Assembly (NCBI RefSeq): GCF_003334255.1
Contig: NZ_QOWU01000009.1
Direction: 5' to 3' (one strand)
Length of the DNA: 64,000 bases
Origin: Escherichia coli
Lineage (GTDB): Bacteria > Pseudomonadota > Gammaproteobacteria > Enterobacterales > Enterobacteriaceae
Below, piece by piece: positions 20,670 through 20,935 of this stretch (position 1 is the stretch's first letter; each line of letters starts with the position of its first letter). Under the pieces are notes generated by a model that saw only the letters and a program-made list of their open reading frames with translations, ran no database searches and was not told where the DNA came from. A program made the translations under genes and the position numbers.

Positions 20670-20935
20670 CTTCTCTCAATAAAATATCCACAGCGACGCG
20701 ATGCGTTATTGCTGGTTTTTGTTGTCTCTGACAAACTCTTGTAAACAGAGTTATCCACAGCCTCAGGCTGTAATCTTAATTTCAAAGAAACTTCGCACGG
20801 TGAATAGTATTTTTTTAACCTATTGATAGATAAGTTAAAAATTAAGATTCCGTTTTGTCGAGTCGATCACTTGACGATTTTATTCGTCTTGAATTGCAAT
20901 GCGTTTTTATTTTTATTCACAAGCTGTGGATGAAT
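20670..20935. promoter_or_regulatory. datA: datA-type DnaA-box cluster (DnaA titration / RIDA-independent inactivation locus)
   Basis: DnaA-box matches: TTATCCACA (20751-20759, exact), TTATTCACA (20913-20921), ATATCCACA (20684-20692) and inverted TCATCCACA (20925-20933), in the AT-rich region between glyY and queG where datA lies in K-12. Confidence 0.55.

Follow-up and report, generated by a model that had tools for sequence, protein, structure and literature searches.

In Escherichia coli, the datA locus is a cluster of DnaA boxes with one IHF site that promotes hydrolysis of DnaA-bound ATP, a reaction named DDAH; it is located downstream of the glyV-X-Y operon, adjoining queG, at 94.7 min (PMC10950094, PMC5742627). 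The minimal functional datA comprises 183 bp, and its essential boxes have a common orientation (PMC5742627). Point mutants of the IHF-binding site (IBS), box 2, or box 7 display a phenotype equal to that of a datA deletion (PMC5835720). Box 1 is dispensable for DnaA-ATP hydrolysis (PMC10950094), while box 4 stimulates the reaction in vitro and is not essential in vivo (PMC5742627). Hydrolysis of ATP-DnaA dependent on both datA and IHF in vitro is attributed to Kasho and Katayama (2013) by the literature that cites that work (PMC5742627), and DnaA residues Arg285, Arg281, and Arg334 are required for the stimulated hydrolysis (PMC5742627). The locus is described as dispensable, and datA is said to account for little DnaA-ATP hydrolysis relative to RIDA (PMC4585315, PMC5835720).

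Several other systems share part of this design. The left half of oriC (R1-IBS-R5M plus low-affinity sites) resembles datA in that high-affinity boxes flank one IHF site, and in both loci low-affinity boxes are filled by ATP-DnaA as a head-to-tail oligomer (PMC5742627). Unlike datA, oriC possesses a duplex-unwinding element (DUE), whereas the datA spacer described below is without a DUE 13-mer and has one GATC only; the outcome at datA is ATP hydrolysis, whereas at oriC it is unwinding, with hydrolysis reported absent. DARS1 and DARS2 are likewise non-coding chromosomal clusters of DnaA boxes that alter the nucleotide state of DnaA, and DARS2 is also timed by IHF (PMC5742627). Their effect is opposite to that of datA, as ATP-DnaA is regenerated once ADP-DnaA gives up its ADP. 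They differ further in having a three-box core and in mapping to 17.5 and 64 min, and DARS2 also needs Fis (PMC4585315). Chromosomal DnaA-box clusters that repress untimely initiation are also described in Bacillus subtilis and Streptomyces coelicolor (PMC10950094, PMC5742627). Compared by description only, these are unlike datA in sequence and context, with no IHF-dependent hydrolysis shown.

The locus considered here is located in a 64-kb window (i.e., the whole stretch of E. coli DNA that was analyzed), in the spacer between glyY and the convergent gene queG (Table 1). The first-pass annotation, made from the sequence letters, had interpreted this spacer as consistent with datA, a reading borne out by alignment: positions 20590-21000, running from glyY through the 3' end of queG, are identical to MG1655 4392583-4392993 at 411/411 bases, and the literature places datA in the glyY-queG spacer (PMC10950094, PMC5742627). 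The gene order of MG1655 (orn, glyV, glyX, glyY, yjeV, queG, and nnr) is also that of the window. A megablast search of 20300-21300 against complete E. coli genomes gave matches in 5426/5426, and in 5424 of these genomes one place covers ≥80% of the query at 95-100% identity. In RefSeq, the only annotated features of the region are the tRNAs, queG, and a 17-codon ORF labeled "hypothetical protein," leaving datA unannotated. An Rfam search of 20100-21100 (E ≤ 1) returned the three tRNAs and sub-threshold noise, with no known RNA element in the spacer. One sub-threshold match to YrlA (Y RNA-like), at 20391-20530 and covering parts of glyV and glyX, scored 40 bits, short of the gathering score of 69, and is almost certainly an artifact of the tRNA-like module in that Rfam model.

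Over the wider interval 19006-23007, the window and MG1655 differ in two places only, the glyX-glyY spacer and one base of queG, with no difference within datA. The glyX-glyY spacer (20561-20574) has one extra A and two substitutions relative to MG1655. Because these changes make it identical to the glyV-glyX spacer, they look like the product of gene conversion between repeats. The differing queG base, 21221, leads to one amino-acid change.

TABLE 1 Features of the glyV-X-Y/queG region, numbered from the first base of the window
Feature	Position	Strand	Description	Basis
glyV-glyX-glyY	20366-20441, 20478-20553, 20590-20665	+	Three tandem tRNA-Gly(GCC) genes	ARAGORN, Rfam tRNA, MG1655 annotation
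glyV-X-Y terminator/attenuator	20677-20724	+	Hairpin and T-run; overlaps 3' part of box 1	RNA fold
datA box 1	20684-20692	+	ATATCCACA; one mismatch	Mismatch search, conservation
datA box 7	20739-20747	+	TTGTAAACA; two mismatches; low affinity; essential; placement inferred	Position beside box 2
datA box 2	20751-20759	+	TTATCCACA; exact consensus; high affinity; essential	Pattern search
Short terminator-like hairpin	20757-20771	+	ACAGCC-TCA-GGCTGT; begins inside box 2; E. coli-specific	Fold; unconserved across genera
datA IBS	20816-20828	-	TATCAATAGGTTA	Exact WATCAANNNNTTR consensus
yjeV	20899-20952	+	Annotated 17-codon ORF; covers boxes 3 and 4 plus the 3' end of queG	MG1655 annotation
datA box 3	20913-20921	+	TTATTCACA; exact consensus; essential	Pattern search
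datA box 4	20925-20933	-	TCATCCACA; one mismatch; inverted relative to box 3	Mismatch search
queG	20935-22074	-	Epoxyqueuosine reductase; convergent with glyVXY; right-hand border of datA	ORF, MG1655 annotation, tblastn
Candidate datA box 5 or "BoxN"	21296-21304	-	CTATTCACA; one mismatch; inside queG	Mismatch search
Candidate datA box 5 or "BoxN"	21582-21590	-	TTATCCTCA; one mismatch; second such box inside queG	Mismatch search

From the end of glyY (20665) to the queG stop (TCA, 20935-20937), the spacer measures 269 bp with 34.6% G+C, in agreement with the earlier description of AT-rich DNA. The first-pass annotation had also reported four 9-mers matching TTATNCACA. All four are present where it had placed them, with the correction that only two (those beginning at 20751 and 20913) match exactly and that the other two are recovered when one mismatch is permitted. 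These four are datA boxes 1, 2, 3, and 4; the essential low-affinity box 7 had been missed. Separated by 3 bp, boxes 3 and 4 are arranged as an inverted pair, and the end of box 4 comes 1 bp ahead of the queG stop, as the earlier remark on a box pair abutting that stop had it. Boxes 7, 2, and 3 all have the same orientation. DnaA ChIP data were sought in PMC12371093, and the paper contains none; the papers searchable here likewise yielded no DnaA ChIP data on a genome-wide scale.

A scan for an IHF site between the boxes, proposed in the same annotation as a check, found an exact match to WATCAANNNNTTR between boxes 2 and 3. This match is the only one in the spacer and one of three in the whole window, and it is the published datA IBS: TATCAATAGGTTA corresponds letter for letter to the MG1655 site in Supplementary Figure S11 of PMC4585315. 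In a genome-wide IHF survey, datA was not substantially detected (PMC8407004); targeted pull-down with qPCR has detected IHF at datA (PMC10950094).

The placement of box 7 was inferred from the text descriptions in PMC5742627, PMC5835720, and PMC10950094. TTGTAAACA is the sole box with ≤2 mismatches that adjoins box 2, being located upstream on the same strand at a distance of 3 bp, which would put box 7 at 4392732-4392740 in MG1655. The placement agrees with the literature, which has the putative yjeV promoter (PyjeV) partly overlapping box 7 and its -35 element within the terminator TglyV-X-Y, the latter also overlapping box 1 (PMC10950094). From the first base of box 7 to the last base of box 3 (20739-20921), the distance is 183 bp, equal to the published minimal datA.

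To gauge variation within the species, the window was compared with five of the most divergent complete E. coli genomes and with the GTDB E. coli representative (L038). The 272-bp spacer has 33 variable columns, of which three fall inside a box or the IBS, all at degenerate (N) positions; the 49 specified box and IBS positions thus contain 0 variable columns, where about 6 would be expected. A 59-genome survey (PMC4585315) agrees with this invariance of the boxes and IBS within E. coli.

For comparison beyond the species, loci were anchored on two adjacent tRNA-Gly(GCC) genes in species-representative genomes, without DnaA boxes as a selection criterion, which gave at least 120 loci. A tblastn search with QueG placed queG next to the tRNA array in at least 28 of the loci listed, out of at least 120. 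Two of these loci, from Aeromonadales (Tolumonas and Aeromonas), have no box array, and the tRNA genes and queG are separated there by 1.5-1.75 kb. Among the matches listed, 26 Enterobacterales species from three families were aligned: Enterobacteriaceae (Citrobacter, Enterobacter, Kluyvera, Pluralibacter, Shimwellia, Siccibacter, Mangrovibacter, and Pseudocitrobacter), Erwiniaceae (Pantoea and Mixta), and Morganellaceae (Proteus, Providencia, and Morganella). Geometry was assessed on 27 loci, i.e., these 26 and the E. coli representative. Across the 26 species among the matches listed, column identity to E. coli is 100% for box 2, 94% for box 3 (whose changes are nearly all at the free N position), 87% for box 1, 85% for box 7, 73% for the IBS (where the specified positions TAA....TTGA are mostly kept), and 68% for box 4, compared to 49% for the remaining 211 spacer columns. 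The first-pass annotation had named a lack of box conservation in related genomes as grounds for refuting the datA reading; the boxes are strongly conserved across three Enterobacterales families as well as invariant in divergent E. coli.

Spacing is retained together with sequence. Box 1 is located 65-68 bp upstream of box 2 in 27/27 of these loci (matches listed plus the E. coli representative), and boxes 2 and 3 are separated by 161-162 bp in 22/27 (range, 159-165 bp). Measured from the first base of box 2, the start of the best IHF-like site is 65 bp away in 19/27 loci, and a site with ≤1 mismatch is found at 65-67 bp in 21/27. Box 7 is a two-mismatch box in 25/27 loci, and its 3' part along with the first two bases of the adjoining spacer (AACAGA, 20744-49) is about 97% conserved, a pattern that suggests selection for weakness rather than drift from consensus. 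A box 4 with ≤2 mismatches is present in 21/27 loci; Morganellaceae have lost it, which fits a box that is not essential. As judged from these alignments, constraint on the locus is strongest at boxes 2, 3, and 7, at the IBS, and on the spacing of these sites, and it is weakest at box 4.

In some of the loci, the tRNA-queG spacer is longer, at 345-724 bp (L026, L064, L066, and L103 in Morganellaceae; L028, L041, L057, L068, and L113 in Pantoea). The module of boxes 1, 7, and 2, the IBS, and box 3 is intact in these loci, with extra DNA on either side: the tRNA array is 69-500 bp from box 1 (versus 16-27 bp in short-spacer loci), and box 3 is 40-47 bp from queG (versus 16 bp).

Read-through transcription that begins at the promoter of glyV-X-Y crosses datA (PMC10950094). 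Folding of 20666-20730 gave a hairpin of -14.3 kcal/mol (z = -2.7) that runs into a T-tract; its overlap with box 1 matches the published position of TglyV-X-Y. Boxes 1 and 2 both end in CCACAGC, each running into a hairpin. A further terminator-like hairpin at 20855-77 was considered and found unsupported, with the right arm alone conserved and an unremarkable fold (z = -1.8). A sigma-70 scan of 20100-21100 returned no promoter-like site, and the same scan misses the real glyVXY promoter. As for the annotated ORF yjeV, its ATG is not conserved, many genera having ACG at that place (CAACG). Conservation there has the appearance of DnaA-box conservation, not of protein conservation, and yjeV is probably not a conserved gene.

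Beyond the named sites, the stretch from the IBS to box 3 contains several short conserved blocks: TTTC (20848-51), CTTG (20870-73), TTGA (20889-92), and a T-run (20904-12, with TTTTT at 20904-08), the last three of which are kept from Escherichia to Proteus. The CTTG block is part of GATCACTTGAC (20865-75), which carries the only GATC of the spacer, and the T-run, within GTTTTTATTTT (20902-12), leads into box 3. These blocks match no named datA element and recur in three Enterobacterales families. Inspection by eye revealed no convincing DnaA box in 11-bp phase with box 3 and no convincing sigma-70, Fis, FNR, or ArcA-like motif in them. A further factor is needed for the timed release of IHF from datA (PMC10950094). 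It is conceivable, at rather long odds, that the CTTG, TTGA, and T-run blocks are the site of that factor and that the datA geometry with its deliberately weak box is Enterobacterales-wide instead of an E. coli speciality. We found no description of order-wide conservation of the datA architecture in the papers searchable here.

Taken together, we identify the spacer cluster as datA, the DnaA-inactivating DDAH locus of E. coli, with a probability of roughly 97%. This identification is based on sequence identity to the characterized locus, on named sites at the expected place and orientation, and on the conservation of both sites and spacing. Specifically, the cluster has the glyV-X-Y/queG position, identity with MG1655, consensus boxes 2 and 3, a weak box 7, a single IBS, and the 183-bp spacing. 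The comparisons show the required datA elements to be present and correctly oriented and spaced, with a pattern of variation indicative of purifying selection.

The simplest competing account is that AT-rich 9-mers have clustered by chance in an AT-rich spacer (35% G+C) and have no function. Across the whole window, boxes with ≤1 mismatch are indeed at expectation (46 observed versus 44 by shuffles), and a four-box cluster within 270 bp arose in 9/300 dinucleotide-preserving shuffles of the window. The spacer is nonetheless the sole place in the window with ≥3 such boxes inside 270 bp, composition-matched shuffles of the spacer itself gave ≥4 boxes in only 1/5000 cases, and in three families the conservation of the boxes greatly exceeds that of the columns around them; we give this account no credence. 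A cryptic origin was likewise rejected because no DUE-like 13-mer is nearby: GATCTnTTnTTTT, with ≤2 mismatches allowed, does not occur between 18827 and 27219, leaving none within 1.8 kb of the spacer.

Two further readings accept that the boxes bind DnaA and assign them another role. Under the "DnaA titration" model, the locus would be a passive sink that lowers the free DnaA pool with no catalytic ATP hydrolysis. Titration was the original description of datA, datA does titrate DnaA, and two consensus and two one-mismatch boxes within 250 bp would suit a sink; moreover, deletions outside boxes 1-4, as well as box 2 or IBS point mutants, cut titration only partly (PMC5835720). A sink, however, has no use for an IHF site held 65 bp from box 2, for boxes 2 and 3 held 161-162 bp apart, or for a box that is weak in 25/27 loci, and it does not explain why the IBS, box 2, and box 7 point mutants mimic a datA deletion. 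Four boxes are also too few for the apparent titration capacity, which is credited to DDAH in review (PMC5835720). We therefore regard a purely passive sink as very improbable. Slightly less probable again is a role in transcription control, in which DnaA at boxes 1 and 2 would act as a roadblock ending glyV-X-Y transcripts, with boxes 3 and 4 insulating the convergent queG. Box 1 is inside the tRNA terminator hairpin, box 2 begins a second hairpin, the stop of queG directly adjoins boxes 3 and 4, and read-through rises when box 2 is mutated or when the terminator is deleted along with box 1 (PMC10950094). Yet the roadblock has been published as accessory to datA regulation, affecting IHF occupancy and replication timing rather than tRNA or queG expression (PMC10950094). 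It gives the IBS and box 7 no role, and conservation extends to the boxes and to their long-range spacing but not to the hairpin after box 2.

With the cluster read as datA, binding, ATP hydrolysis, and cell-cycle timing are carried over from the literature on the identical sequence. DnaA would occupy the high-affinity boxes 2 and 3, and after initiation, IHF at the single IBS would sharply bend the DNA such that the DnaA molecules on these two boxes meet (PMC5742627). ATP-DnaA would then fill the weak box 7, with box 4 assisting in vitro, to give a head-to-tail oligomer in which arginine-finger contacts would trigger hydrolysis of the bound ATP (PMC5742627). Departure of ADP-DnaA would allow datA to turn over catalytically, leaving less initiation-competent DnaA (PMC5742627). 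The locus would also titrate some DnaA directly, and its timing would be governed by the moment of IHF binding. Read-through would be reduced by DnaA at box 2 and by the leaky terminator of the tRNA operon, which overlaps box 1, and it would be blocked by bound IHF (PMC10950094).

The feature itself is already known, and there is nothing biologically new in the presence of datA here. Its recovery illustrates that a reading of sequence only can recognize an unannotated regulatory locus, and the conservation across families independently supports, on evolutionary grounds, the functional map in the literature. Four systems are known to control whether DnaA carries ATP or ADP and thereby help limit replication to once per cell cycle in E. 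coli; datA is one of them.
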